The notes under the pieces were generated by a model. It was not told the origin of the DNA. It saw nothing but the letters and a program-made list of their open reading frames with translations, and ran no database searches. Position numbers and translations under genes: made by a program. A DNA stretch of 64,000 nt from a virus, in IMG/VR virus record IMGVR_UViG_3300044627_003499, positions 1 through 64,000 of that record, one strand, 5' to 3'. Numbering within the stretch: position 1 is the first letter of the stretch; each line of letters starts with the position of its first letter. This document shows, one piece after another, positions 18,422-46,700 of this stretch.

Positions 18422-20443
18422 TTACCAAGAAGAAAGGGCTGTACGTCGCCACGTATCTGTAGCAGTGCAGACGTAAATGTAGTTGGCATCCCAGCAGATT
18501 TCACCGGCGGTGCCAGTGGCTGTTGCTGATGCTGGAGTACGGGCAGTGCGCAGGCGAACGGTGTCAGAGTTTACATCTAATAGCGTGGTAGGGCTACTAA
18601 TCCCAATCCCTACGCGACCTGATCCATTGACACAAAACTGAGTATCCCAAGTAGTTCCACCAGCAAATTGCCTAATAGCAAAAGTTCGGCTATCGGTATT
18701 AACACTATTTGTTGCACCCGAGGAAACGTTTCCACCTCCTTTATCAATAGAAAACCCCCAAAAAGCCCTGATATGAAAGTCACCATTAAAATTGTTAGCT
18801 ATGCCATTTACACCTATTCCTATAGATGTTGAATTGATTTGCGCAACAGTTAACCCAGGGGTAGTGATGGATAAATCCGCACCATTACTTACGCTTGAAG
18901 TATCTGGACCGGAGACAACTTGAAGCAGTTTTGTGGGGCTACTCGTCCCAATCCCTACGCGGCCGGAGTCGTCGATGCGGAGGCGTTCGTTATAAGCGTT
19001 ACTGCTTCGAACAATTAGGTACCCGTGAGAAGCGCTGCCTGTTGCCAGATCAATGTAAGTAGCTGAGCCGGTGCCAGTGTCTCTGATTGCACAAGAAGCG
19101 CCGCCTAGATAAATACCGACCTGTGAACCATCACCGCGAGCCGTTACTGCCCCGTTGACATCCAACTGTGAATTAGGACTATTCGTACCAATCCCCACGC
19201 GGCCGGAGCTGTCGATGCGGGCGGCCTCGAACAAAGAGCCACCTGCGTTGGTGACTTCAAAAGAAAGAGCCGTTGCGCTAGTTGAGGCGTAGTTATAGTT
19301 TGTTTTGATCTTGCAGCCGTGAAGCCTATCAGTTCCGGTTGAAGTCCACGCGCCTAGGTATAACGAGTGGGATCCTGCAAAGCCTCCAGACACGTGTGTA
19401 AGCAGAGGATTAAAAGCCCCAGCCGCAGACGAAGAAGCAATGTTGACAACACTGTCTTGAGGGTTTGTCGTCCCAATCCCCACGCGGCCGGAGCTGTCGA
19501 TGCGGAGGCGCTCGGTGCCGGAAATGTTGCCGAACAATACTGCTCCAGCTGATGTTAATGAAACATCATTTAAAGAAGCTCCGGTAATAAAATTTGCGCC
19601 TAACCCTAGCGTGGCTCTTGTTGTTCCGCTGGCGCGTAAAGAGATGCCGCCACCATTTGCGGCAGTAGAGTTGAATAGCGCTATTGTTGAATTGTTTCCA
19701 GTGTCAACCTCAAAAATTGCCCCTGGCGAACTTGTCCCAATCCCCACGCGGCCGGAGCTGTCAATGCGCATCCGCTCGGTACTTGTAGTTGCAAAAACAA
19801 GTGGCGTTGCACCATTTGTAACAATTAAACCTGCGCTTGTATTTTGAAAATTAAGAATGCCAAGATTTGCGTTTGACAGTCCAGCGTTACTGCCAGCGGT
19901 GGTCGATCCGTTCTGAACGATTGAGGTGCCTATATATGAAGGCCCACTAGCGTAATCTTGTACTTGCGCTTCAATACGTGCTATACCGCTGTTTGTTGCA
20001 TTGCGGCAAACCATACGTTCGCCGTCACCAATAACTTCGAGTTTGTTTTGAGGAGTGCTTGTCCCAACCCCAAGCTGACCCGTTGAATCAATAAAAATTC
20101 TTCCTGCACCACCAGTGCTAATACCTAAAAGGTCAGTACCAGCACCATATAAACCAGGTGCCACACTTGCACCAACACCTACTTGAATACTTGGAGCACC
20201 AGCGCCTCCTGCTGGAACTTTAACAATTGCACCTGAAATTTGTGTGGTGTAAACACCTGATGCAAAGTTGGCAGTCGTACCAGTTACCGTTGGGGCCTGA
20301 ACAATTAAACCAGAGATGGTACCTGTTGCCGTGACGTTACCAGTGAAGGTAGGGTTTTGAACTAAACCTGAAATTGCGACACTCTTATCTACGCCCGCAT
20401 TCGTAAACGTAATCGTATCAACCTTGATAGTACCGTACGGCAT
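18422..20443 (-). CDS. Tail fibre protein with repeated ER.RIDSSGRVGIGT.SP modules
   Basis: At least six GxVGIGT repeats; C-terminal GEICWDANYIYVC. Confidence 0.85.
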   Translation of the reverse strand: MPYGTIKVDTITFTNAGVDKSVAISGLVQNPTFTGNVTATGTISGLIVQAPTVTGTTANFASGVYTTQISGAIVKVPAGGAGAPSIQVGVGASVAPGLYGAGTDLLGISTGGAGRIFIDSTGQLGVGTSTPQNKLEVIGDGERMVCRNATNSGIARIEAQVQDYASGPSYIGTSIVQNGSTTAGSNAGLSNANLGILNFQNTSAGLIVTNGATPLVFATTSTERMRIDSSGRVGIGTSSPGAIFEVDTGNNSTIALFNSTAANGGGISLRASGTTRATLGLGANFITGASLNDVSLTSAGAVLFGNISGTERLRIDSSGRVGIGTTNPQDSVVNIASSSAAGAFNPLLTHVSGGFAGSHSLYLGAWTSTGTDRLHGCKIKTNYNYASTSATALSFEVTNAGGSLFEAARIDSSGRVGIGTNSPNSQLDVNGAVTARGDGSQVGIYLGGASCAIRDTGTGSATYIDLATGSASHGYLIVRSSNAYNERLRIDDSGRVGIGTSSPTKLLQVVSGPDTSSVSNGADLSITTPGLTVAQINSTSIGIGVNGIANNFNGDFHIRAFWGFSIDKGGGNVSSGATNSVNTDSRTFAIRQFAGGTTWDTQFCVNGSGRVGIGISSPTTLLDVNSDTVRLRTARTPASATATGTAGEICWDANYIYVCTATDTWRRTALSSW
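18948..19768. repeat. Four near-identical ~33-bp GC-rich repeats inside the fibre gene
   Basis: CCAATCCCCACGCGGCCGGAGCTGTCGATGCG at about 18948, 19188, 19473, 19737. Confidence 0.8.
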
Positions 20444-20481
20444 TGTCGCTTACCTGTTTTTACTTATTTTAAGCCAAAAAA

Positions 20482-22221
20482 TTAAGGAAGGATGATTAAT
20501 GGTCCTTGAATTACAAAACCAGATGTACTACCAGAAACAACACCGGAGCAAACAATGGCTGGTGTTGCGCCAGAAGGAGTTGTAACCCGAAGAATACTAC
20601 CGGTGATATTGGTGAATGCACCGGTGGCACCGGTCACTGTGGTACCAGAGACTTGTGTACTGAAATTACCGTTGACAAAATTGGCGGTAGTACCAGTGGT
20701 TGTTGTACCGGTTAGCGATGTGAAGTTACCACTGACAGCATTTGCAGTTGTAAAATTAGCCGTTGCGCCAGTAACGGTTGTACCTGAAACAACGGTGGTA
20801 AATACACCAGATGCAAAGTTGGCAGTAGTACCGGTCGTTGTTGTACCAGTTAATGACGTGAAGCTACCAGTGACAGCAGTTGCAGTTGTAAATTGACCTG
20901 CAGTGCCGGTAACAGTGATACCACTAATTGTTCCAGTAACACTAAGACCGGAAGTAATAAAGCCGGATCCAAGTGTTGTTGTATTACCAGAGAATGTAAG
21001 GTTACCGCCAAACGTCTGGTTGGTTGCCGTTAAGTTCTGGAAAATACCACTGGTTGCGCTTACGGTTGTACCAGTAATTGTTGTGCCGGAAATTCGCGTT
21101 GTGAATACGCCTGATGTAAAGTTAGCCGTTGTACCCGTAATGGTCACACCAGTAAGAACAGTAAATGCTCCACTAATGCCAGTGACGGTAGTGAACTGAG
21201 CCGTGGTACCGGTTACGGTTGCGCCTGATAACGTTGTAGTAAAGACGCCTGTTACTCCGGTCAGCGATGTAAATGCACCACTAACACCTGTGATTGTTTG
21301 TCCTGTTAACGATGTAAATGCACCGCTGATGCCAGTGACAGTTGTAAATCGAGCCAGCGTACCTGTTGTGGTTACACCGGTAAGTGACGTAAAGTTCCCT
21401 GTGACAGCATTTGCGGTTGTAAATTGTCCCGTATCACCTGTAATGGTGGTACCAGAAATAGATGTTGTAAATATACCCGTAACACCAGTAAGAGACGTAT
21501 ATTGCCCCACATTTCCAGTAATCGTGGCACCCGATAACTGTGTTGTATAGACACCGGATACACCTGTTACAGATGTAAAGACTCCCGTTGCACCAGTAAT
21601 TGTGTTGCCGCTGAGCGTACCAGTGACATTGACGTTGCCCTGGAAAAGACCTGAGCCAATGAACGTACTAACGCCAGTGACCGTAAGTGTCGACTGAATG
21701 ATTCCAGTGGCAGCCGTAAGTGTCGACTGAATGATTCCAGTGGCAGCCGTAAGTGTCTGGAAATTTCCTGTGGTGACGTTAGCGGTAATACCGGTGACAG
21801 TTGTCGCTTGGATGTTATTGCCGGTGATCGTGGCGCCAGATACTCTGTCCGTAAATCGTCCGGACACAAAGTTTGCCATGGAGCCAGTGAAGGTTGTTCC
21901 ACTGGTAGTGCCGCTGACATTTAAATTGTTCTGGACGATAACACCGCTAAATGTTCCAAGGCCTGAACTTGTGACAGTGCTCAGGCTTGTCGCACCACTA
22001 ACGGTTAAACCACCTTGAATTACAACATTGCCGCTGATTGTTTCGCCAGTGACGTTTGCATAGTATTGATCTAGGTAAGTACGGAACTGACTGAAGGTAA
22101 TTTTTTTGTTGCGCAGTACCGGGTCCACTTCAAAAACGTGGACCAGCGTCATGAGGTCTTCATCAACAATCGCGGTGCCGTCAATCGACGGAAACTCGCT
22201 GATCCTTCTATTGGTGGCCAC
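20482..22221 (-). CDS. Thr/Gly-rich repetitive fibre/shaft protein
   Basis: Many ~10-aa FTSLTG.T.TG repeats; N-terminal RRISEFP. Confidence 0.75.
   Translation of the reverse strand: MATNRRISEFPSIDGTAIVDEDLMTLVHVFEVDPVLRNKKITFSQFRTYLDQYYANVTGETISGNVVIQGGLTVSGATSLSTVTSSGLGTFSGVIVQNNLNVSGTTSGTTFTGSMANFVSGRFTDRVSGATITGNNIQATTVTGITANVTTGNFQTLTAATGIIQSTLTAATGIIQSTLTVTGVSTFIGSGLFQGNVNVTGTLSGNTITGATGVFTSVTGVSGVYTTQLSGATITGNVGQYTSLTGVTGIFTTSISGTTITGDTGQFTTANAVTGNFTSLTGVTTTGTLARFTTVTGISGAFTSLTGQTITGVSGAFTSLTGVTGVFTTTLSGATVTGTTAQFTTVTGISGAFTVLTGVTITGTTANFTSGVFTTRISGTTITGTTVSATSGIFQNLTATNQTFGGNLTFSGNTTTLGSGFITSGLSVTGTISGITVTGTAGQFTTATAVTGSFTSLTGTTTTGTTANFASGVFTTVVSGTTVTGATANFTTANAVSGNFTSLTGTTTTGTTANFVNGNFSTQVSGTTVTGATGAFTNITGSILRVTTPSGATPAIVCSGVVSGSTSGFVIQGPLIILP
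21681..21757. repeat. Perfect 33-bp tandem repeat, about 2.3 copies
   Basis: CCGTAAGTGTCGACTGAATGATTCCAGTGGCAG x2 plus a partial copy; encodes TLTAATGIIQS. Confidence 0.9.
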
Positions 22222-36238: not shown

Positions 36239-36976
36239 TCAACCAAACAGGCCATTAAGGTAATCTGATGTGGCGCTGGATTGACCCATAAGTAACGGAT
36301 CGTTTGTTCTGTAAGAATCCAGGAATCCGATGGGGTTGAGTGCTTGTGAAATTAAACCTCCAACCAACTGTTCTTTGAGTGTGTCTTGTATTGTTTTCTT
36401 GGGTTTTTCTGGTTCTTTACCCTGCAACTGAGCACCGTACATAAATGCTTTAATGATGTCTTCAGCGCGAGAATCGGTGCCCCCTTGTGGTTGAGTCGGT
36501 GCTGCAGTTGGTGCAGTTGATGCAATAGCCCCGGCTTTGCCAAGGGATTTCATGTGTCCAAAACCAAGTTCGTATTTGTTATCCCCTGTGGTAAATGCTG
36601 CCAGATTGCCGTAACCACCTTGATTAGCAAGGGGCTTGTATGTACCAGAGCCTTCGAAATAAACCGGAGTTCCTTCTGGAAGAGCCCAATCTTCCCCCCG
36701 GTGAAACGAACTAGCTCCCTTGGTTGGGGCACTACGCGGACCATACTTGGAAGTCAAGCTGATCCCAGCTTGTGGATTGAAATCGTATTTGCCTTCTTTG
36801 TTTTTAATCAGTGCTGGTACTCTTTGCTCGCCAACGCGAACGCCAGCTAAAGCAGAACGAATAGTAGAAGGGTCAATATACTGTCCAGTCGAAAGATCTT
36901 TCACATAAACATGCTTATGTGGGCCGGTTGACACCCCGGTAGAACCCACCTGTCCTAAGTATGTTATGCCTGCCAT
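36239..36976 (-). CDS. M23-family peptidase-like protein, motif order permuted
   Basis: VGSTGVSTGPHKH at the N-terminus; HRGED, GGYGN and FGHM later. Confidence 0.7.
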   Translation of the reverse strand: MAGITYLGQVGSTGVSTGPHKHVYVKDLSTGQYIDPSTIRSALAGVRVGEQRVPALIKNKEGKYDFNPQAGISLTSKYGPRSAPTKGASSFHRGEDWALPEGTPVYFEGSGTYKPLANQGGYGNLAAFTTGDNKYELGFGHMKSLGKAGAIASTAPTAAPTQPQGGTDSRAEDIIKAFMYGAQLQGKEPEKPKKTIQDTLKEQLVGGLISQALNPIGFLDSYRTNDPLLMGQSSATSDYLNGLFG

Positions 36977-37005
36977 GGTATCGTTTTATTCTTCATTGTA
37001 AGATT

Positions 37006-37029
37006 AAAAAACCCCTGGTTTCCCAGGGG
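37006..37029 (-). terminator. Intrinsic terminator after the displaced gene end
   Basis: Minus strand CCCCTGG-GAAA-CCAGGGG followed by TTTTT. Confidence 0.8.
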
Positions 37030-37043
37030 CTTGGTGGAGATGG

Positions 37044-37073
37044 TTATACGCGAATTAAATCAGCAGCAAGTAC
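37044..37073 (-). pseudogene. Displaced original 3' end of the HhH gene (VLAADLIRV*)
   Basis: GTA CTT GCT GCT GAT TTA ATT CGC GTA TAA encodes the same peptide as the end of 37595..38005. Confidence 0.9.
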
Positions 37074-37120
37074 GCCAATAAAACGTTTCAGGTGCTATAG
37101 TTTTATTTTGCTGCTTTGGA

Positions 37121-37564
37121 ATGAAAAGGATTAATCCGGATACGGGGCAGGCCTTTAAGCACGGGGATCGCCGAGAAGACGGCTTTATGTTCACTGGTTA
37201 CAATTTTAAAAAAATAAAACAAGACGGCACTTTCCTGGAAGTATGGACAAGCCCTGAGCAAATAAACCACAAGAAAGCGTATGACAAAAAAAGAAGCCAA
37301 CGCATTTCCATAGAAAACAGAAATTGGATGAACGAGTTAAAGGTGAGCCAAGGTTGCGCCTGCTGCGGATACAAAGATCACCCAGAAGGCCTTGACTTTG
37401 ATCATCTTTATGATAAAAAATTTAACATCGGCAGGGGCGGCACGTTAAGCAAAAAAAGACTGGAGAAAGAAATTCAAAAATGCCAAGTTCTTTGTGGAAC
37501 TTGTCATCACATAAAGACAAGAAATGAGCAAAAATTTAATGAACTAATGAAAAAGAGGGGTTGA
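37121..37564 (+). CDS. HNH homing endonuclease (cassette in HhH gene 3' end)
   Basis: GCACCGY...LDFDHL...EIQKCQVLCGTCHHIKT; AT-rich; paralogue of 43954. Confidence 0.88.
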   Translation: MKRINPDTGQAFKHGDRREDGFMFTGYNFKKIKQDGTFLEVWTSPEQINHKKAYDKKRSQRISIENRNWMNELKVSQGCACCGYKDHPEGLDFDHLYDKKFNIGRGGTLSKKRLEKEIQKCQVLCGTCHHIKTRNEQKFNELMKKRG

Positions 37565-37578
37565 AACCCCTCTTGTTT
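37551..37578. terminator. Bidirectional terminator between convergent genes
   Basis: AAGAGGGG-TTGAAA-CCCCTCTT flanked by A- and T-rich runs. Confidence 0.7.
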
Positions 37579-37594
37579 GAGTTATGCATTTAAA

Positions 37595-38005
37595 TTAAAC
37601 CCTAATCAAATCGGCCGCCAGGACCGCATTCCAATCAACACGCTTGATTTGCTTCAGCTGTTCAAGATTATTGAATCTTTCACCCGACAGAGACATCTGA
37701 AGGTCTTTAATCTCACGTGCTGTTTTAAGACCAATTCCCTTAATGTGATCCGCAAGCATTTGTGCGGTAGCGGAATTGACATTTAAACGGTGATCTGGGG
37801 GAAAATCCCGTGGGTCCTCTTTGGCTGCTTTATCTTTGACTTGAAGAGTTTTTACCTTTTTGGTAGCTTCTTCATCTGGGATAAGTTCAGAGTTGTAAGC
37901 GGTGTAAAGGCGACCGTCCTGATCTTCGACCATGAACCAATCGCCATTATCAAACTCACTAACAACTTTGACGCGAGCGCCAGTTTTTTTGTGCTGGTAA
38001 AGCAT
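37595..38005 (-). CDS. Helix-hairpin-helix (ComEA-like) DNA-binding protein
   Basis: LNVNSATAQML...IKGIGLKTAREI...F..LEQLKQIKRV. Confidence 0.75.
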   Translation of the reverse strand: MLYQHKKTGARVKVVSEFDNGDWFMVEDQDGRLYTAYNSELIPDEEATKKVKTLQVKDKAAKEDPRDFPPDHRLNVNSATAQMLADHIKGIGLKTAREIKDLQMSLSGERFNNLEQLKQIKRVDWNAVLAADLIRV

Positions 38006-38043
38006 GAGGACCAGATGTTAATTCTGGTCCTAGTTTAGCTTAT

Positions 38044-38853
38044 TCAGCTGACAGTGCGGCCAAGCAGGTAAGCTTCGATGTCTTCGTAGCCAGGGGCAAT
38101 GTCAGGCTGGACGTAGCAGGTTTCCACAACCAGGTAACCAACACGACCGGCGGCGGCGTCACCGCTGGAGATGTAGAAACCACCGGAAGTTGTGGTGGAG
38201 TTTGCAGTTTCCTTAGCAAACACACGCAACGTGGTCGAGGCAGTAACCGGGTAGTTGACCACAGAACCAGAGACACCAGCGGCGCCAGTAGCGGTCAGGA
38301 CGGCGTTGGTACCATAACCGGCAGTGCCGCCAGCGAAGTAAATTTCGCCAGCTTGGAGACCGGAAACAGTGGAAGTCATGTTGGCTTGAATCACGCCTTC
38401 ACCAACGCCAGAAGCGGCGACAGGTGCACCACCGTTGCTACGACCGAACGAAATGACGTTACCGGTAGCGGCATACACACCAGAGGCAACACGGCCATCA
38501 CCCCAACCAGAGGCAACCGAAATTGCGGTGCGGTACACGTAAGCAGGCAGTGTGCTGCTACCAGAGATCACCATACCCGTGATGTCGGGACGAGTGTCAT
38601 CCTGACGATAGGGCGACGGAACGATCACAGCAGCGGAGTTGACGCTACCAGCACCAGAGGTGGTTGTCACTGCGACATAACCACGCTGCTGGAAATAACG
38701 GTAACCAGGCAGAGCAAGGACCGAGGTGGGGCCACCAAGGGAGCTGTCGAGAGCAGTACCGGCTTCGACAATAGAGTCGATGTTCTTGTACCAGCCGTTC
38801 AGGGGTTCTGCCCAGTTGCCTGGGAAGATTTTTTTAGCGGACAAATAGGTCAT
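38044..38853 (-). CDS. Putative capsid decoration/minor structural protein
   Basis: Directly follows the major capsid gene; Ser/Gly/Ala/Thr-rich; strong codon bias. Confidence 0.55.
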   Translation of the reverse strand: MTYLSAKKIFPGNWAEPLNGWYKNIDSIVEAGTALDSSLGGPTSVLALPGYRYFQQRGYVAVTTTSGAGSVNSAAVIVPSPYRQDDTRPDITGMVISGSSTLPAYVYRTAISVASGWGDGRVASGVYAATGNVISFGRSNGGAPVAASGVGEGVIQANMTSTVSGLQAGEIYFAGGTAGYGTNAVLTATGAAGVSGSVVNYPVTASTTLRVFAKETANSTTTSGGFYISSGDAAAGRVGYLVVETCYVQPDIAPGYEDIEAYLLGRTVS

Positions 38854-38888
38854 TTATTTTTCCTTTTGTTAGTTGTTTACGTTATTGA

Positions 38889-40052
38889 TCAGATGTTACC
38901 GTCATCTTGCACGAAGCTGAACGCGGTGGTCACGAAGTCCTTGTTCAGGATTTCAAAACCGGCGTACAGTTGCCAAATAAGAATGATGAAACGGCTGAAA
39001 TCGTCGTTGTTGTTGATCAGAACTTGAGCGTTCGGACCACCGATGCCAACACCAATCGCTTGAGGACCGAAGAAGTAACCTTGAGCGGCTTCTTTCACGG
39101 CATAGGTAGAACCACCGTCAAAGGAAGTGCTGATGCTCTTGATCGGGAAGTTGGTGGATTCGAAGAACTTAACGCCTTCAAACTGCACACCAGTAGGCAT
39201 GACAGGTTCGCCAGCCAGGAAGTAGGCTTGACCAGCCTGGGGGCCTTGGTAGAAGCTAGCGTTGTTAGGCAGCATGGGGTTACCCATGTACATGCCTTGA
39301 CCAGGATTACCAGCGTAACGGGCGATCTCACGGAAGTCAGGGTCACGACGCAGGTGCATCATGAACGTGGGATCGCAAATACAACGATACAGACCATCGG
39401 CATAGGTCGGAACGTTGCGCTTGCGCAGGTCCTTAACAACGGTCAGCAGATCGGTACGCACCTGGAACTGCTGCAGGTCAGCGGTGTATTCAGTACCAGT
39501 GTAGGAAATACGACCGGAAGCATCCTTGACCTTGTTACCAGCGAAGTAGTAACCGCCTTGAGTTGTGGAAGCAAGACCGTTGGCTTCAGCTTTGGACAGT
39601 TCATCAATGAACACGCGGTCACGCCAGCGGCGATAGTCGTCAAGCAGCGTCAGGCTACCGATCGACTGGTGGAACATATTCAGGTTGCCGGTATCCAGCA
39701 GCATGCGCTGAGCGGTAACCAGAGTTTCGCGAGCAATCTTGAATGTGCTGGGCTGAGTCGGGTCGCCCGGATCCGCAGGACCGGTGTACTCCTTAAGCAC
39801 CACCAGAACTTTCTCTTTGGTGATGTTACGGCTGTTAGCGGTACCGATCGTTTGGTCAGCAATACGCTCACGGCTATCCTTAGTACCAGGGGTACCCCAG
39901 AACTTGTAGCGGTCTAACTGAACGGTTTGACCAGGCTGACGTGTGAAGTCGTGGACAACCACGGGCTCCACAGCCATCTCAGCGATGTACGCAGGGTGAG
40001 GACGATAAAGTTCCGCACCTAAAATCTTTGGAAAGTCGTTATCAATAAACAC
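38889..40052 (-). CDS. Major capsid protein
   Basis: 387 aa; F..QPGQTVQ, V.LKEY.G, VGIG...DDFSR...LIW..YAGF; highly biased codons; follows the scaffold-like gene. Confidence 0.8.
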   Translation of the reverse strand: MFIDNDFPKILGAELYRPHPAYIAEMAVEPVVVHDFTRQPGQTVQLDRYKFWGTPGTKDSRERIADQTIGTANSRNITKEKVLVVLKEYTGPADPGDPTQPSTFKIARETLVTAQRMLLDTGNLNMFHQSIGSLTLLDDYRRWRDRVFIDELSKAEANGLASTTQGGYYFAGNKVKDASGRISYTGTEYTADLQQFQVRTDLLTVVKDLRKRNVPTYADGLYRCICDPTFMMHLRRDPDFREIARYAGNPGQGMYMGNPMLPNNASFYQGPQAGQAYFLAGEPVMPTGVQFEGVKFFESTNFPIKSISTSFDGGSTYAVKEAAQGYFFGPQAIGVGIGGPNAQVLINNNDDFSRFIILIWQLYAGFEILNKDFVTTAFSFVQDDGNI

Positions 40053-40171
40053 TTTGTTTTATCCTCCAGTGTCGCAGGAAGTGTGTTGTCAGGTGAAAGA
40101 TTCAGACATGATTATGTCTTATCTAACACAAATTTTAGCAGCCGATAATTTATTTAATTACCGGCATTAAA

Positions 40172-41158
40172 TCATTCCATTACAAATAATTTGTTTGCAA
40201 CGGTCTGAGGCTGAGCTTGGTTCAGGACGCGCCAGGCATTCTGAGGATCGCGATTCATCATCTCGCCAAAAGTGCCCCAGAAATTCTCAGGTGCTTGCGG
40301 AGCAGCAGCTGTCGGGGGAGCAGGGAAGTTGCCAGCTTGGAACTGACCAATCGACTGAGTCGGATAACCGCGTGTCTCAAGTTCCTGCTCGTTTTCGTAC
40401 ACAGGGTACGGACCTTCAGGACCAAAGAACTTAAGCGTGTAATCGCTCAGGACATCGGGATTGGTAAGGATCTCGTTGTAGGCAAGATTCTCTTGGTGCT
40501 CGTTAACAGCGAAATTAGCGTAACCCTTGATGGTATCAGCTGCGCGGTTTCCCCACGCGACGGCGCTGTCCAGCATTTGCTCCAGGTTTAGAGCGTAGTT
40601 GTTCAGCACTGCCGGAGCTTCGATCCCGAACGCGTCCATCACGTACCGACTGTCCTGGCTCATTCCCAGGAGGTCCGCCATTTGAATTGCCGCCTCCTGC
40701 AAGGATTGATTGGAGGAGGTTGGGGAATAGCTGGGCGAGTATGCCTGGTTGGGAGACCAAGTCTGCGGAGCCGATTGTTGCGTAGCTTGGCTGCTGTACT
40801 GTCCGTAATTGGCCGGGGTATACGCCGTCGTCGGCGGCGATGGTTGACCCTGGAACGGGGATTGGACTGGTGCGCTCAGCAGATTCACCACCTTGTTGAA
40901 CGCCGATTCCCAGGGATTCCCCGCCGAGTCCACCGCCGGTTGGGATTGGGGGGCGTACTGAGTAGGGCTGGATTGGTAGCTGGGGGCTGCCTGAGGTACC
41001 GCTTGGGGGTAACTGGTACCCACCTGATACGCCACCGGAGCCGGAGCCTGGTAACTGGCCGGAGCTGCTTGCGGTGCTGCCACCACGTAGCTGCTCGGCG
41101 CGACGGCCGCTGGTGCTTGGCTCGTCTGTGGGATCGATTGGACGGTAGCGTCCTGCAT
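40172..41158 (-). CDS. Putative capsid scaffolding protein
   Basis: Pro/Gln/Ala-rich low-complexity ORF between portal and capsid. Confidence 0.6.
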   Translation of the reverse strand: MQDATVQSIPQTSQAPAAVAPSSYVVAAPQAAPASYQAPAPVAYQVGTSYPQAVPQAAPSYQSSPTQYAPQSQPAVDSAGNPWESAFNKVVNLLSAPVQSPFQGQPSPPTTAYTPANYGQYSSQATQQSAPQTWSPNQAYSPSYSPTSSNQSLQEAAIQMADLLGMSQDSRYVMDAFGIEAPAVLNNYALNLEQMLDSAVAWGNRAADTIKGYANFAVNEHQENLAYNEILTNPDVLSDYTLKFFGPEGPYPVYENEQELETRGYPTQSIGQFQAGNFPAPPTAAAPQAPENFWGTFGEMMNRDPQNAWRVLNQAQPQTVANKLFVME

Positions 41159-42908
41159 AACTCATCTCCTTTTGTAAAGCTTCTAAAGTGCGATATAGAT
41201 AGGGTGTTAAATCTAATCGCGGGTCCGCAGCCATCGGTAAGTCCGGTGATTGCGGATGGGGAGTTTGCATCATTCCCCCCACAAGGCGAGCAAATTGAGA
41301 GTATGCACCCTGCAATTCATTCACCATTCTGAACGGAAACCCAGATAACATCTCGGCCCGTTCCTCATCCGTCTTGGACGGGAAGAGGTATTTCAGTGCC
41401 TCAATGCTATCAACACCTAACTCTTGTAAGTTGCGCACCACGATGGAGTTGTTCAGTATGTCTTGAGTGGAATCCTCATACACAGGGCCAAGCCAACGCC
41501 ACTGCATGGTCACATCGCCATCTGGAATTAAACCAGAAACACCGGGCGGGATCTGCTGCGTTTGAAGGCAAGCCATCATCAACTGCTTGACCTGATCATC
41601 AAATGCACTCATGGCATCGTTGTACGCTGCCAAGTCTTCCGCACTAGATTCCTCTGGAAGATCCAGGGGTTTTTCTAATCCTGCAGCAGCGGCAAGCGTT
41701 TCTTTGAACAGACGTTCTTCTTGGTAGATAATTAGCTCAAAACAACGGCAAATGCCGTAAGTGTAAATAGCAATTGCCTTTTTCTTGGACGTGGCAGAAA
41801 CACGACCAAACAATGACTTGTACTCAGTTGCAGTCACGCCTGCAGAAATTGACAGTTCGTCAACGCCGCCCAGGGCAGTGCGAATTTCTTCTCGGTACTG
41901 ACGTGCGAAAGAATTCTGGTCGCCAGTGATGGCATCAGGAACAATGTAACCAACACGGTCGTTTGGTTCCAGGTTTGCAATGACGCGTGGAACTCGGATC
42001 TGTCCGTCAACACCACGGTGAATGGGATCAGCCTTGAAGCGGGATTGACTCAGTCCACTGGGGCCACTAAACCCAGAGTTGGCTGCGATAGAAGGACGCT
42101 GGACAACGTTCTCGCCACCGGCCTCCATCAAGTCAGTCTTAGGCCTAGATGAAAGAAGCGTAGGGTTACCAAAGAACTGCACGTTCTTACGCATGGTGCG
42201 AACCATTTCATCATGCGTGCAGATGTGATTGGCTAACGCTTCAAATTCACCAACACCTTCAGTAGAGAAACCTTTGACGTTATGGAAAATTTCTACGCAA
42301 GGAATAAAGCCCAGCGTATTTATGAACGTTTTTGTTCTACCGAAATTTGCTTGGTAGTTGCTATCAAACGACAGCTCGCCTTCCGAGTGTGTTTCTTCAA
42401 TCGTTTTGCGTTTGATTGAAAGGCGAATGTAACGCTTTGCACCGCCCTGCCCCATGGTGGCCGGACCACTTAAACTTGCGGAATCGATGTCCTGCTGGTA
42501 ACCAAACCCGTTCTTGACCTTGTAGCTGTAGATGATTACAACTTCATCAAGCTCGCCATCAATGTTGTAATAGCTACGATATTCATGCTTACGAAAGTAG
42601 TAAAGACGATAGTTATTCTGAGTTGGACGAATGTAAAAAAGACCTTGTCCATCACAAAGTGAATAATCCCAGATCGAATCGAAGCGGATGTCGAGAGAGT
42701 TGTATTTAATTACACGATCAATAAAGTCTTTGCGCTGATTGCCAAAGTTATCCTGCACAGGAAAAAACTCGACACCCTGGCGGATGCCGAATAATTTCAT
42801 CTGCGCTAGGTGTGAAGCTACGACGCCAGTGTCAATCATTGACCCGCCGTCTTTTTCAAGATACGAGTCAATAATTTCCTTGAGTCTAGACTTAGCGTCG
42901 ACGGCCAT
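40536..42908 (-). CDS. Putative portal protein with long low-complexity C-terminal extension
   Basis: Position between terminase and capsid; N.LGFIPCVEI and WRWLGPVY motifs; 3' part overlaps the scaffold gene. Confidence 0.65.
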   Translation of the reverse strand: MAVDAKSRLKEIIDSYLEKDGGSMIDTGVVASHLAQMKLFGIRQGVEFFPVQDNFGNQRKDFIDRVIKYNSLDIRFDSIWDYSLCDGQGLFYIRPTQNNYRLYYFRKHEYRSYYNIDGELDEVVIIYSYKVKNGFGYQQDIDSASLSGPATMGQGGAKRYIRLSIKRKTIEETHSEGELSFDSNYQANFGRTKTFINTLGFIPCVEIFHNVKGFSTEGVGEFEALANHICTHDEMVRTMRKNVQFFGNPTLLSSRPKTDLMEAGGENVVQRPSIAANSGFSGPSGLSQSRFKADPIHRGVDGQIRVPRVIANLEPNDRVGYIVPDAITGDQNSFARQYREEIRTALGGVDELSISAGVTATEYKSLFGRVSATSKKKAIAIYTYGICRCFELIIYQEERLFKETLAAAAGLEKPLDLPEESSAEDLAAYNDAMSAFDDQVKQLMMACLQTQQIPPGVSGLIPDGDVTMQWRWLGPVYEDSTQDILNNSIVVRNLQELGVDSIEALKYLFPSKTDEERAEMLSGFPFRMVNELQGAYSQFARLVGGMMQTPHPQSPDLPMAADPRLDLTPYLYRTLEALQKEMSYAGRYRPIDPTDEPSTSGRRAEQLRGGSTASSSGQLPGSGSGGVSGGYQLPPSGTSGSPQLPIQPYSVRPPIPTGGGLGGESLGIGVQQGGESAERTSPIPVPGSTIAADDGVYPGQLRTVQQPSYATIGSADLVSQPGILAQLFPNLLQSILAGGGNSNGGPPGNEPGQSVRDGRVRDRSSGSAEQLRSKPGANAGQRRRVGKPRS

Positions 42909-43063
42909 TAACTATTTTCCTTTTTCTTTGACTCAATCTTAGCAGCTTTTGCCTGCTTCTTAAGGTCTAACCATTTGCCAAAATACACCAGTTCGGCAGA
43001 GGAATAAAGCTCTGGATGATGCAGCGCTTGCTTTACAAGTTTTTTAGTTTTCATAGCGTTTCC

Positions 43064-43387
43064 TCACGAAACAAATTTGGAATTAAACCCAGCTTGGCCG
43101 AGCTGATAAGCGTCGACCATCCCCTGGATATTACCGATAGCGCCAGGTAAATTGCTGGAACCAAACGCCATAGGGAGCTGAGGGCCAGCTCCGGGCTTGA
43201 TGCCGCGTCTCATTAGCTCGTCGTTGAGTTGTTGATTTTGTTGTGTACCGCCTTCATATAAACGACGCAGTTGTTCACCCGACCTACCACCCAACGCACC
43301 TGGTGTACGCCTAATATCAAAACTTGGGTTACCAGCAAGTAAATTACCGGGGGCCCCAGGGACGTTAGATTCTCCGCCGTAATACAT
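43064..43387 (-). CDS. Hypothetical Gly-rich protein
   Basis: 107 aa ORF. Confidence 0.5.
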   Translation of the reverse strand: MYYGGESNVPGAPGNLLAGNPSFDIRRTPGALGGRSGEQLRRLYEGGTQQNQQLNDELMRRGIKPGAGPQLPMAFGSSNLPGAIGNIQGMVDAYQLGQAGFNSKFVS

Positions 43388-43411
43388 GTGACTATCTGGT
43401 TTTCCCTTATT

Positions 43412-43594
43412 CTAGTCCTCTAAAACTTCGTAACCTGAAGCGTCATTTACCTTGGAAATTACGATACCTTCGCCGCGTACATCCCAATTTAAAACATCGC
43501 CTTCTTGCCAACCCAACTCTTCGATCACTTCGTCGGGCAAAATAATGTATTGATCTCCGTTTTCGTCCTCTTGTACTTCAAGAATGTAGCTCAT
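43412..43594 (-). CDS. AbrB/MazE-like protein
   Basis: GDQYIILPDEVIEELGWQEGDVL. Confidence 0.7.
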   Translation of the reverse strand: MSYILEVQEDENGDQYIILPDEVIEELGWQEGDVLNWDVRGEGIVISKVNDASGYEVLED

Positions 43595-43863
43595 TTGGTC
43601 AAAAGCTTTTCCATCAGTTTATCAAGCTTATTATTGATCTCGCGAAAATTGTTGTGCATTTCTTGAATTTCCCTTAAGAAGTCCACCTTGAGCACGTAGT
43701 CCAGTGGCATGCGGTTGACCTGGTCTTCCAAGAGGTCCACCCTTCGGTTTTGTGAATTAATTCTTTCGCCCAGGCGACTCATAAGCTTACTCATTACCCA
43801 GGAGCCACCTGTCGCAGCTGAGATCACTGCCGTAAGAGCAATAGCTAAATACTCTGGTCCCAC
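43591..43863 (-). CDS. Membrane-anchored coiled-coil protein
   Basis: N-terminal hydrophobic helix; YV.K.DF; KLDKLME. Confidence 0.55.
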   Translation of the reverse strand: MGPEYLAIALTAVISAATGGSWVMSKLMSRLGERINSQNRRVDLLEDQVNRMPLDYVLKVDFLREIQEMHNNFREINNKLDKLMEKLLTK

Positions 43864-43892
43864 GAATCCAAGGTTTTTTAATATTCTAAGAG

Positions 43893-43952
43893 TCAGTAAT
43901 CGAGGTGAAGCTGTCCTTTTCTTGCTAATCCGGTAACGAGCCAGACGAGAGC
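43893..43952 (-). pseudogene. Displaced original 3' end of terminase (ALVWLVTGLARKGQLHLDY*)
   Basis: 19/19 aa identical to the terminase C-terminus at 44412-44471, with 15 codons different. Confidence 0.95.
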
Positions 43953-43953
43953 G

Positions 43954-44409
43954 TTAAAGATTGTGTTTAATACAGAGCTTATTGAAAGCTTCTATATCAT
44001 GCGTTTTGATGCGATGACAGTTGGCGCATAAAACTTGGCATTTTAAAATTTCTTCTTTTATTGTTTCAATGTTTCTAGACGACATTCTTGAAACACCTTC
44101 AACTTTAGAGCTTGGATCAAGATGATCAAAGTCGAGGGCATAAGCACTTTCTTTGTAACCACAGCAAGCGCAACCTTGTTTTAGTTTTTCTTCATGAATA
44201 ATTTTTATGTTTTTGCTATGGTTTTCTCTTACACTTTTTTTGTAGTATTCTTTGCGCTTTTCCCATGACTCTGGGGACAGCCAATTCATTTGATATGTAC
44301 CATCTTTATTTATGCGTGATTTTCTTCTATAGGCAAGAAATATCCGGCCATCTGGACCAACTTCGCCATACTTCCAAGGCTCGCCTGTTTCTGGGTTTGT
44401 TCGTTCCAT
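43954..44409 (-). CDS. HNH homing endonuclease (cassette in terminase 3' end)
   Basis: GCACCGY...LDFDHL...EILKCQVLCANCHRIKT; AT-rich. Confidence 0.88.
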   Translation of the reverse strand: MERTNPETGEPWKYGEVGPDGRIFLAYRRKSRINKDGTYQMNWLSPESWEKRKEYYKKSVRENHSKNIKIIHEEKLKQGCACCGYKESAYALDFDHLDPSSKVEGVSRMSSRNIETIKEEILKCQVLCANCHRIKTHDIEAFNKLCIKHNL

Positions 44410-44411
44410 TT

Positions 44412-45941
44412 TCAATAATCAAGATGTAACTGACCTTTTCGGGCAAGGCCTGTTACTAACCATACTAATGCATCAATACAATCGTCGTGACTACTTACGC
44501 CAAAGTTGGTAAGCTCTTCAAACATATTGGTGAAGTTACGAAAACGATTGAAGATGATCTTGCGGTCCTCAAACATTCCCATAATGCCACGGAAACGAGC
44601 CAACTTATCTGCCCTGAAACCTTTGACGGGATGCCAAATTAAATTGTAGAGGCCTTCATTGTTCAAGCAAACACGCTTGAAGTCTGCCTCCAGAGAAGCC
44701 TGATACTGTACGGCCTCACTCCAAATATCACACGTTGAATAGCTGGGGTAATACAAACCGCTTTGTTCGTCTTTGGCAATCACTGACCAATCATTCAACA
44801 ACTCCTTGAGGGCATCAAGTTTTTCAAGGTTACCCATGACGCGAATACGTCGGTAATCAATGATATGAATGCGGTCGCCAATGCGACCACCGAGAATCAT
44901 AACTGTGTAATCGTTTTTCTCTTTAGTGCCAGCGGAGAGGTCAACCCCAACCCCAAGGGCGTCAAACTCCGTTGCAATTTCCGCTTTTACAATTAACTCC
45001 GGAGCCAGCGAAAGTTCGTTCTGCCGGATGACTTGATTCATGTACTGGAACGAGAAAGCAATTGGTGCCTGCCGTTTTTTCTCCTTCAGGTAATCCAATG
45101 ACCACATGTCTGGCCAATACGATTCCTCTTCGCCGGAAATGGGATTGTTTTGAATTGCTGAAAGGATAATCTGTTGCCAGTTGTTTTGTTCATTAAATGT
45201 TGTGGAGTGAATGTCATCGTGTCTGAAGCGAGTACCAAGGCAGATTGCTCGTGCACCTTCAAACATGGTGGGTGCAATCACAGCATTCCAGTTGTCCTGC
45301 ATCTGTTTCCTGATGTCAGGGTTGGCAATATCTGCGGCTGACTTGATGGCGTCATCAATCATGACCAAGTGCGAACGCTTGGAAGTCACCGAACCCTTGA
45401 GGCCTGCTGCGCAAAGCGTAAACTGTTCGTCGCCTGTTACGTCAATGCCAGCAAACTTGTGATCAATTGACCAGTACTCATTACTGGTGGCGTTCTTCAG
45501 AAGGCGAACTTTAGGGAAAACTTCTTGGTATCGTTTGCTTTCAATGATGCGTTTAATGGTGGAAGATTTGGAACGAGCGATGTCAACGGTGTAGGACAGA
45601 TACAGAATCTGCAGTGGCAACCCTGCGTGCGTATGGATGCCAATGGCCCACGCCGTAAGCAGACCCAACACTGTGGACTTGGCAGAACCCCTGGGCGCCA
45701 GGAGATCCACATTGGGACCAGCGATCTTAATGAGGCAACTGCTGTCCTCCTCTGTGACGAAGTGTCGATGCCAGTTGAGGTGATGAGCAGCCGGTGGTTT
45801 ATCTGCTACGTATTCACAGAAGAAGCCAAAATCTTCCTGGGCTTTCTTCAGTGCTTCTGCGTTACGTGGCTTGCGTATTTGCTGTCTGCGTGCGGCGGCT
45901 TGAGCATTGCGGCGGTAAGCAAGATGCGTATAGCTTGGCAC
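44412..45941 (-). CDS. terL: Terminase large subunit
   Basis: Walker A APRGSAKST, Walker B VMIDD, GTRF..DD, FSFQYMN, GVD.S, DYT, K..R, HDDCIDAL. Confidence 0.92.
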   Translation of the reverse strand: MPSYTHLAYRRNAQAAARRQQIRKPRNAEALKKAQEDFGFFCEYVADKPPAAHHLNWHRHFVTEEDSSCLIKIAGPNVDLLAPRGSAKSTVLGLLTAWAIGIHTHAGLPLQILYLSYTVDIARSKSSTIKRIIESKRYQEVFPKVRLLKNATSNEYWSIDHKFAGIDVTGDEQFTLCAAGLKGSVTSKRSHLVMIDDAIKSAADIANPDIRKQMQDNWNAVIAPTMFEGARAICLGTRFRHDDIHSTTFNEQNNWQQIILSAIQNNPISGEEESYWPDMWSLDYLKEKKRQAPIAFSFQYMNQVIRQNELSLAPELIVKAEIATEFDALGVGVDLSAGTKEKNDYTVMILGGRIGDRIHIIDYRRIRVMGNLEKLDALKELLNDWSVIAKDEQSGLYYPSYSTCDIWSEAVQYQASLEADFKRVCLNNEGLYNLIWHPVKGFRADKLARFRGIMGMFEDRKIIFNRFRNFTNMFEELTNFGVSSHDDCIDALVWLVTGLARKGQLHLDY

Positions 45942-45973
45942 AGCAGTAATTCAGAGTATTACTGAATACTACC

Positions 45974-46138
45974 TTACTTTTTGTCTTCTTGTTTTTTGGC
46001 CTTTTGCTTTTGATACTTACGTGCTTTTTCTAAAGCGGCCTTACGCTTTTCCTTGTCCGACATCTCAGTGCCGTCTTCTTTCTTTGCATCTTTTTTCTTA
46101 AGGTGCGCAAGAAACTGCGGAGGAACTTTACCAGCCAT
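45974..46138 (-). CDS. Small Lys-rich protein
   Basis: MAGKVPPQFLAHLKKK...QEDKK (54 aa), manual translation. Confidence 0.55.
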   Translation of the reverse strand: MAGKVPPQFLAHLKKKDAKKEDGTEMSDKEKRKAALEKARKYQKQKAKKQEDKK

Positions 46139-46192
46139 TTAAATCAGTTATCTGTTAACAATGTTGTATTGCACTTTAATATTTTAAGGCAG

Positions 46193-46700
46193 TTATTCGT
46201 CAAGTTGCATTTTTGCCCACACACTCATGGTCGCTTCTTCCAGGGGGATCTCGATGGGATCATCCTTGAAGACGGATAGGAGTTCACGAATGGCACGATC
46301 GGCACCAGCCATTAACAGACCTTTGCGATCTTTCATGCCAGTGAATCGGTCAATTTGTTCGATGTGACCACGGATTTCTTTTTGCATTGACGCAATGCGG
46401 GCAACGCCTGCATCACGTTTAACATTGCCGTTCTCAACATCTTCACGGAGTTTGCGAACATCCTCCTGCATCTCGTCAATTTCATACAGAAGTTTTTGAC
46501 GATGATCGGCCTTAGGGTAATTGTTTTGGACCCAAAGCTCACACGCAGTAATGCTACCTGTATACCGTAGGAACCGGGCATACAAGTAGACTTCGACTAC
46601 GGAATAGTTGTTGCTAGCAAAAGAGCAAAATGTTTCCTGAGTTGACGCATCGAGATTGTCAACCCAGGAATCAAATAACTCAATATCGATAAGCTCGTTG
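46193..46700 (-). CDS. Hypothetical helical protein (terminase small subunit candidate); start uncertain
   Basis: Coiled-coil ORF close upstream of terL. Confidence 0.4.

Follow-up and report, generated by a model that had tools for sequence, protein, structure and literature searches.

How can a mobile nuclease gene lie within an essential phage gene without destroying it? In the usual view, a homing element lasts within an essential gene only if it is spliced out, as introns and inteins are; the alternative for phages is a position between genes. Here we analysed a window of 64,000 nucleotides (nt), positions 1 to 64,000 of the 85,710-base virus record IMGVR_UViG_3300044627_003499, a metagenome-derived lake phage of about 86 kb, in which the gene for the large terminase subunit (terL) is followed by an HNH endonuclease gene and then by a second copy of the terL end. 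It is very likely that a free-standing HNH homing-endonuclease element has colonised the 3' end of terL by gene-end replacement. The mobile unit (cassette) would consist of a foreign, synonymously diverged version of terL's final 21 codons and a stop codon, followed by the HNH gene, and the phage's own last 20 codons appear to have been pushed downstream and left as an untranslated orphan. Alleles with the cassette are called occupied below, those without it empty. The locus is built as follows.

44412 to 45941, minus strand: terL, large terminase subunit, 509 amino acids (Pfam Terminase_6C at residues 331-495; PHROG 38)
44478 to 45941, minus strand: native terL body, codons 1-488 up to HDDC; 34 of 1464 nt differ from the empty relative L006, and the joint seen in metagenome contigs ends at 44478
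44412 to 44477, minus strand: putative cassette-borne replacement end of terL, 21 codons and stop (IDALVWLVTGLARKGQLHLDY, then stop); 20 of 66 nt differ from L006; low GC content at third codon positions (GC3)
43954 to 44409, minus strand: HNH endonuclease gene, 151 amino acids and stop (Pfam HNH PF01844; PHROG 3106)
43955 to 44477, minus strand: whole insert, 523 nt; empty-allele contigs carry four other letters instead
43893 to 43953, minus strand: putative displaced native end of terL (orphan); matches the tails of empty alleles, and the native intergenic region follows
43591 to 43863, minus strand: next native gene, 90 amino acids, membrane or lipoprotein-like (PHROG 462); marks the native context of the orphan

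The two ends of terL

The peptide ALVWLVTGLARKGQLHLDY with its stop is encoded twice, by the last 60 nt of terL (44412-44471) and again at 43893-43952, where the orphan lies outside any long open reading frame (ORF). An earlier note on this DNA had reported the same tail peptide twice with 15 of 19 codons different and no amino-acid change, and the codon comparison bore this out: the two copies differ in 19 of 60 bases and in 15 of 19 sense codons, the stop codon is identical and no amino acid is changed. Synonymous alternatives exist for 18 of the 19 codons, so that 15 of a possible 18 are changed. The longest identical run between the copies is 7 nt. Synonymous changes make up 42 of the 171 single substitutions in the tail, which gives about 2.6e-12 for 19 in a row, and when 19 substitutions were placed at random in a simulation, the peptide stayed intact in none of 200,000 such sets. 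The duplication with its synonymous differences is thus confirmed as real and far beyond chance.

The replaced piece is slightly longer than the duplicated peptide. The window has HDDCID (TGTATTGAT) at the place where HDDCVD (TGTGTTGAC) is found in empty alleles, and the replaced end therefore comprises 22 codons including the stop (44412-44477), with one V-to-I change and its border after HDDC. This moves the junction, which the note had set at HDDCID, two codons further upstream. The replacement tail is predicted to be the functional TerL C-terminus.

To see which tail is native we turned to relatives of the gene, of which 597 were found in a scan of IMG/VR; the counts of tails cover the best 80 of the 597. 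A single tail with no HNH gene or orphan behind it was found in 78 of the 80, one relative was occupied (L005) and one scarred (L066). The HNH gene was missing even from phages with 99% identical TerL. It was also missing from Synechococcus phage S-EIVl, a cyanophage isolated from an arctic lake and the sole named-phage match of the window (a 2.6-kb query matched over 72% of its length, at 73.6% identity). The tail of the near-identical cassette-free relatives L006-L013 was the orphan version and not the upstream copy, and in L006-L010 it was identical to the orphan of L005 and 3 of 60 nt away from that of the window. Behind the tails of empty alleles stands the same intergenic sequence as behind the orphan, and a homologue of the 90-amino-acid gene lies directly 3' of terL both in S-EIVl and in the empty alleles. 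Against L006, the window differs by about 2.3% in the terL body (34 of 1464 nt) and by about 30% in the last 66 nt (20 of 66). GC3 was 0.20 in the upstream tail (last 60 nt) and 0.296 in the HNH gene, compared with 0.529 in the terL body and 0.45 in the orphan. Because the tails of empty relatives, the divergence and the composition all agree, the upstream tail appears to be imported and the orphan to be the phage's own displaced end. The expectation in the note that cassette-free relatives would match the downstream copy was therefore upheld, and no close relative showed the opposite outcome, an empty allele that matches the upstream copy.

The nuclease gene and its recurrence behind terL

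The HNH assignment rests on a Pfam match to PF01844 of 22.4 bits (cut-off 21.4) and on PHROG 3106 (E 9.8e-31); a sequence search of PDB gave only spurious weak matches, mostly antibody chains, the best with E 0.01. The ATG of the gene lies 2 nt 3' of the terL stop, and the 60-nt orphan stretch begins one base after the HNH stop. In most cassette lineages the ATG starts 1 nt before the end of the terL stop codon, an overlap that suggests translational coupling, and the HNH gene of the window is probably translated by coupling to terL as well.

Across lineages the HNH genes are 60-68% identical and their synonymous sites are saturated. Residues C80, C83, D95, H96, C128, C131 and H132, the catalytic and zinc-binding residues of the nuclease, were invariant among 21 sequences, and the ratio of non-synonymous to synonymous substitution rates (dN/dS) had a median of 0.098 and a maximum of 0.24 in the 52 of 171 pairs with computable dS. 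Since dN/dS is low and these residues are invariant, the nuclease is kept by purifying selection.

Intein or intron identity was ruled out, as a stop codon stands between terL and HNH and there is no in-frame fusion. The Pfam search found HNH only and no Hint domain, and Rfam gave no match of any kind, ribozymes included, in positions 36500-46500 of the window at E up to 1. Together with the polarity of the two tails and the recurrence described next, this supports the proposal of the note that an intron-less, intein-less element of the HNH homing type sits at a conserved terL site and supplies its own gene end.

A search of IMG/VR with the HNH protein gave 8 loci with 64-99% amino-acid identity. 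In all eight the gene stands directly behind the terL stop, and in all seven that are complete an orphan tail comes next. A scan for the cassette-type site pattern gave 105 stretches, and the figures that follow rest on 80 of the 105, with presence of the HNH gene after terL counted by tblastn. HNH followed terL directly in 25 of these 80 loci, and two further loci contained only a scar (L197, which is the contig of L066, and L227). Wherever an occupied locus had enough downstream sequence the orphan was present (23 of 23), always in the order foreign tail, HNH, displaced native tail. The motif TTAGTATGG occurs in the replacement tail of every cassette allele. Imported tail and orphan differ by 5-14 synonymous and 0-4 non-synonymous changes among 18 codons, the values for the window being 13 and 0.

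The orphans were intact and lineage-matched in all 23 loci, which, despite the age of the HNH family, would fit their renewal at each homing event. Each of the 23 loci held one orphan, and no tandem clusters of elements or fragments (stacked orphans) were found among them. No second tail was found in the 186-nt spacer of L204. In about half of the cassette lineages the HNH ORF continues into the orphan, out of frame with it, and stops there, so that the displaced gene end supplies the last residues of the nuclease and its stop codon. Such an extension of 13-22 nt into the orphan, in the other frame, was observed in L213, L090, L190, L218, L202, L232, L244 and L176.

Coexisting, scarred and hybrid alleles

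All four sequencing runs compared with the window (X1, X5, X8 and X12) are lake-water metagenomes, and two of them hold both alleles. Contigs running through the HNH gene had a depth of 11.8 in X8 and 9.4 in X12, and the joint that skips the cassette had a depth of 13.6 and 28.9, respectively. This joint, which connects 43954 to 44478 in both runs, leaves out 523 nt (43955-44477) and has CGAC (plus strand) in between. Occupied and empty alleles thus meet in one water sample.

Two other types of allele were found. In the scars (L066/L197 and L227) the foreign tail is followed by the first few HNH codons, of which a 10-codon ORF is left, and then by the orphan; in L066 the two tails are only 25 nt apart. 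These alleles look like deletions of the nuclease. The second type comprises cassette-free hybrid tails (L025 and L014-L021, the latter reading HDDTVD) that are cassette-like upstream and native downstream. Compared with C-type empty alleles, the HDDTVD patch contains 7-8 differences in 21 nt, and the other 1509 nt contain 44-50 (Fisher p 2e-7 to 5e-6, for a 21-nt window picked post hoc). No hybrid of the opposite polarity was present among those seen, and the polarity is that expected from recombination between the tail copies or from repair that copies only the start of the donor tail. Taken together, hybrids and scars look like the products of a running homing cycle of gain and loss, as far as the sequences can tell. 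The note had further suggested that the respelling limits excision. This holds in part: identical runs of at most 7 nt should lower the rate of loss, but hybrid tails and scars with a deleted HNH gene do exist.

A proposed homing cycle and its alternatives

The alleles can be arranged in a simple cycle. When phages with and without the cassette infect one cell, the HNH protein, produced late through its coupling to terL, would cut or nick an empty terL at or near the codons for HDDC-VDALVW. The break would be repaired from the occupied genome, with the terL body as left homology arm and the orphan with the downstream DNA as right arm, and the recipient would end with its own gene body, the tail of the donor, the HNH gene and either its own or the donor's orphan. 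The respelled tail (TTAGTATGG versus CTCGTCTGG in close empty alleles, with a V-to-I or C-to-T change adjacent) would make the occupied allele uncuttable, and the imported tail would in this way serve twice, in repair of the gene and in protection of the occupied allele. We infer from the arrangement of the alleles and their occurrence in the population that the nuclease cleaves and where exactly it does so, that the respelled allele is immune and that the orphan acts as a homology arm.

Several observations weigh against this account or parts of it. The contigs that show the joint of the empty allele are short; they reach only 30 letters past it on one side and were matched at 90% likeness. 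Aborted repair would account for the hybrid tails as well as loss of the cassette would, and cutting may take place at some distance from where the cassette is inserted. The design does not come with the protein: the HNH relatives in T7-like phages (about 43% identity; Yersinia phage phiA1122 and Klebsiella phage KP34 are among the closest in named phages) are intergenic, and no duplicated end of the upstream gene was found there (local alignment scores 17-24), so that gene-end duplication does not appear to be a property of this HNH family as such. Nor is the motif TTAGTATGG confined to cassettes: of the 80 loci that contain it, 53 have no HNH gene, mostly in more distant lineages, where such tails may simply be native. 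Finally, some distant cassette-free relatives (L181, L188, L214, L231, L240 and others) have single tails that are, in the 60-nt tail identities on which the comparison of distant lineages is based, 78-88% identical to the cassette tail and 67-75% identical to the orphan of the window. These tails may belong to donor lineages or be products of precise loss. As some distant single tails resemble the cassette tail in this way, the "recoding" of the note looks like ordinary synonymous divergence of a tail from a donor lineage and not like a special design.

The motif TTAGTATGG was also considered as a signature of immunity and was rejected as a firm claim on account of the 53 motif loci without HNH.

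Among the other explanations, the one that survives best is that the cassette is a dead or domesticated relic which entered once by illegitimate recombination, with the HNH gene kept for another job (for example, attacking co-infecting phages, or DNA metabolism) and the pattern of presence and absence due to ordinary recombination among co-circulating phages. We consider this unlikely. The absence of the cassette from most related genomes (78 of 80) is in line with it, members of this protein family occur in T7-like phages as ordinary genes between other genes, and purifying selection shows that the nuclease is useful, not what it is useful for. However, the cassette stands at exactly the same terL codon in lineages whose HNH genes are only 60-68% identical and saturated at dS, each with an intact and lineage-matched orphan (23 of 23), and repeated site-specific entry fits this better than one old accident. 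The coexistence of occupied and empty alleles in single samples also argues against a relic, as do the hybrids and scars, which resemble a running cycle of gain and loss.

A second possibility, which we regard as very improbable, is that the HNH protein is an accessory of terminase packaging as in HK97-like phages and that the duplicated tail is incidental. Kala et al. are said to have described, in 2014, HNH proteins encoded beside the terminase genes of HK97-like phages. Although the gene in the window directly adjoins terL and is probably co-translated with it, a packaging role is difficult to reconcile with its absence from S-EIVl and from 78 of the 80 close relatives, some of which have a 99% identical TerL, or with a paralogue in the same genome that sits in a helix-hairpin-helix gene unrelated to packaging. 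That the duplication is an artefact, either of chimeric metagenome assembly or of chance local duplication and drift, is hardly credible even for a window from a metagenome-derived record, since the same structure recurs with small differences in independent contigs of other samples (L005, L085, L087 and about 20 more) and in Logan contigs of the four runs (of which X1 may be the source of the window DNA), and all 19 tail differences are synonymous (none of the 200,000 random trials). Homing by gene-end replacement is thus preferred over all three.

Further elements in the same genome

When the window was scanned for repeated peptides of 8 residues, only one further pair of this kind (VLAADLIRV) came up, at the end of a gene with a helix-hairpin-helix (HhH) domain. 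A third element was recognised near the start of the window. The features of the two sites are these.

37044 to 37636, minus strand: second element, at the HhH gene (replacement end, terminator, opposite-strand HNH gene, orphan)
37595 to 38005, minus strand: helix-hairpin-helix gene, 136 amino acids (Pfam HHH_3)
37595 to 37630, minus strand: putative replacement end of the HhH gene, which ends in VLAADLIRV and stop
37553 to 37574: predicted hairpin terminator borne by the second cassette
37121 to 37564, plus strand: paralogous HNH gene of the second element, 43% identical to the one at the terL site
37044 to 37073, minus strand: putative orphan, VLAADLIRV and stop, with 7 of 9 codons changed relative to the end of the HhH gene
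2940 to 3461, plus strand: third element (gene end, convergent nuclease-like ORF, orphan)
2400 to 2960, plus strand: host gene of the third element, 186 amino acids, ending in KAVLRSS and stop
2947 to 3435, minus strand: convergent nuclease-like ORF, 162 amino acids, no Pfam match
3438 to 3461, plus strand: putative orphan, KATLRNG and stop, still coupled (TGATG) to the next gene

These two further cassettes appear to obey the same rule of gene-end replacement as the one in terL. The second was present in 3 of the 80 relatives compared and also in L097, where it ends at the contig end. L101-L109 are empty at the HhH site and have exactly the orphan version, and cassette-free hybrids were found here too (L093, L094, L096 and L100). 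At the third site the empty alleles L279, L280, L286, L287, L294 and L295 end with the orphan version, and L278 and L282 have the cassette-type gene end and the same sequence past the stop.

Some other features of the window and its relatives deserve mention. An HNH-like ORF of 82 amino acids (4067 to 4315, minus strand) is 36% identical to part of the HNH protein at the terL site and abuts the stop of the gene at 3458 to 4066; a tRNA-Leu(CAA) was called beside it (4345-4416, minus strand). No duplicated gene end was found at this ORF by exact 8-mers, to which the search was limited. Two genes downstream of terL, a 60-amino-acid ORF (43412-43594) has a domain like that of MazE/AbrB-type antitoxins (Pfam PF04014, E 3.7e-08). 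Peptide repeats occur at 18940-19770 and 20250-21850, for example VPIPTRPE four times at a spacing of about 240-285 nt and several units of TGxxxNF or FTSLTG; these runs probably belong to repetitive structural or fibre genes.

The TerL of S-EIVl (KJ410740; L004:3050-5590) is annotated with 846 amino acids and has about 337 extra residues where the window has SHLVMIDD. The insert has a cysteine at its start and another right after it, as in inteins. Should this prove to be an intein, terL would be targeted in this phage group by a second kind of homing element.

Implications

The terL element is moderately surprising to a specialist, and it is unusually well documented by natural alleles. It seems to offer a solution that needs no splicing, the substitute gene end, to a phage element within an essential gene. 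We also lean towards a wider view, in which phage homing endonucleases have, in addition to introns and inteins, a third general means of living inside essential genes that has not been described so far, namely replacement of a gene end (or start). The three elements in one 86-kb lake phage and the approximately 26 occupied terL contigs fit this view. No description of gene-end replacement in phages was found in a full-text literature search whose coverage lacks most subscription journals and supplementary files, and one may therefore exist.

If the general view is true, the displaced end would not be junk but a downstream homology arm that is renewed at each homing event, core genes would become chimeric through the traffic of cassettes, and amino-acid polymorphism would be driven beside the nuclease motif of the terminase (HDD, then C or T, then V, I or L). 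Such cassettes turn core phage genes, among them terL and other usual markers of phylogeny and taxonomy, into chimeras with a foreign last stretch, and they leave behind short untranslated gene ends, which annotation pipelines miss. In addition, natural pairs of presumably cut and uncut sites could make the specificity of small HNH nucleases readable. The locus also connects the HNH elements of phages with what was recently defined in yeast as a "third class" of homing element.

Comparison with known homing systems

Within phages, the nearest counterparts are the Seg and Mob endonucleases of T4, known for "intronless homing". As far as the available parts of the sources describe them (PMC2988022; Barth et al. 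2023, PMC10448857), these are likewise stand-alone nucleases of a lytic phage that adjoin essential conserved genes and are variably present, they presumably spread through break repair in mixed infections, and Mob is also an HNH protein. An intact nuclease domain and presence or absence at a fixed site among near-identical genomes, both marks of the Seg/Mob type, were found for the terL element. Unlike it, however, the T4 genes lie between genes or split genes, whereas here the nuclease lies inside a coding sequence and brings a substitute gene end; in the accessible parts of the T4 review (PMC2988022) and of PMC10448857 we found no mention of duplication or replacement of a gene end. The terminase intron of phage ICP1, as described in the part of PMC10448857 at hand, is similar in being a homing element in a conserved catalytic motif of terL that does not destroy the gene. 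Terminase inteins and group I introns need RNA or protein splicing, in contrast to the present element, which needs none: a stop follows the substitute tail, and neither a Hint domain nor a ribozyme match was found. Membership among packaging HNH proteins of the HK97 gp74 type was rejected: the gene is not conserved among phages that share the terminase, being missing from 78 of the 80 relatives and from S-EIVl.

Outside phages, the endonuclease ORFs of fungal mitochondria with alternative or duplicated C-termini, in atp6 and cox2 of Phlebia radiata, atp6 of Allomyces macrogynus and rps3 of Ophiostoma novo-ulmi, are comparable, going by the portion of PMC4019555 available to us. There too the nuclease ORF stands behind a new or premature stop, between two versions of the C-terminus of which one is foreign. 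They differ in belonging to the GIY-YIG or LAGLIDADG families, in residing in an organelle and in being often linked to introns, and a population set of empty, occupied, scarred and hybrid alleles, as found here, is not described in that portion (PMC4019555).

The closest likeness in design is to the WHO elements of yeast FBA1 (aldolase), for which we rely on the available parts of Coughlan et al. 2020 in eLife (PMC7282813) and of a preprint by Osborne, Monnin and Wolfe from 2026 (doi 10.64898/2026.08.13.744650). A WHO element comprises a gene for an endonuclease plus a replacement 3' end of the essential gene, the old end being displaced and proposed to act as a second homology arm. The replacement end has been proposed to confer resistance, and the host gene is turned into a chimera with two ends of separate history (PMC7282813; doi 10.64898/2026.08.13.744650). 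The terL of the window appears to be such a chimera too. To judge from these parts, the order of full-length host gene, endonuclease and displaced 3' fragment is shared (23 of 23 loci here), and so is the occurrence of the endonuclease in either orientation (the first and second cassettes here). Unlike the WHO endonucleases, which are LAGLIDADG, intein-derived, HO-related zinc-finger proteins, the protein here is an HNH nuclease of 151 amino acids; its host is a phage and not the yeast nucleus, and the replaced piece comprises 7-22 codons instead of about 400 bp. The stacked clusters of elements and fragments known from WHO are not seen here, and several lineages have an HNH ORF that stops within the orphan. 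By analogy, the terL element probably works like WHO elements and the fungal mitochondrial ORFs, but it is a member of neither family, and the free-standing endonucleases of phages are most plausibly the family to which it belongs.

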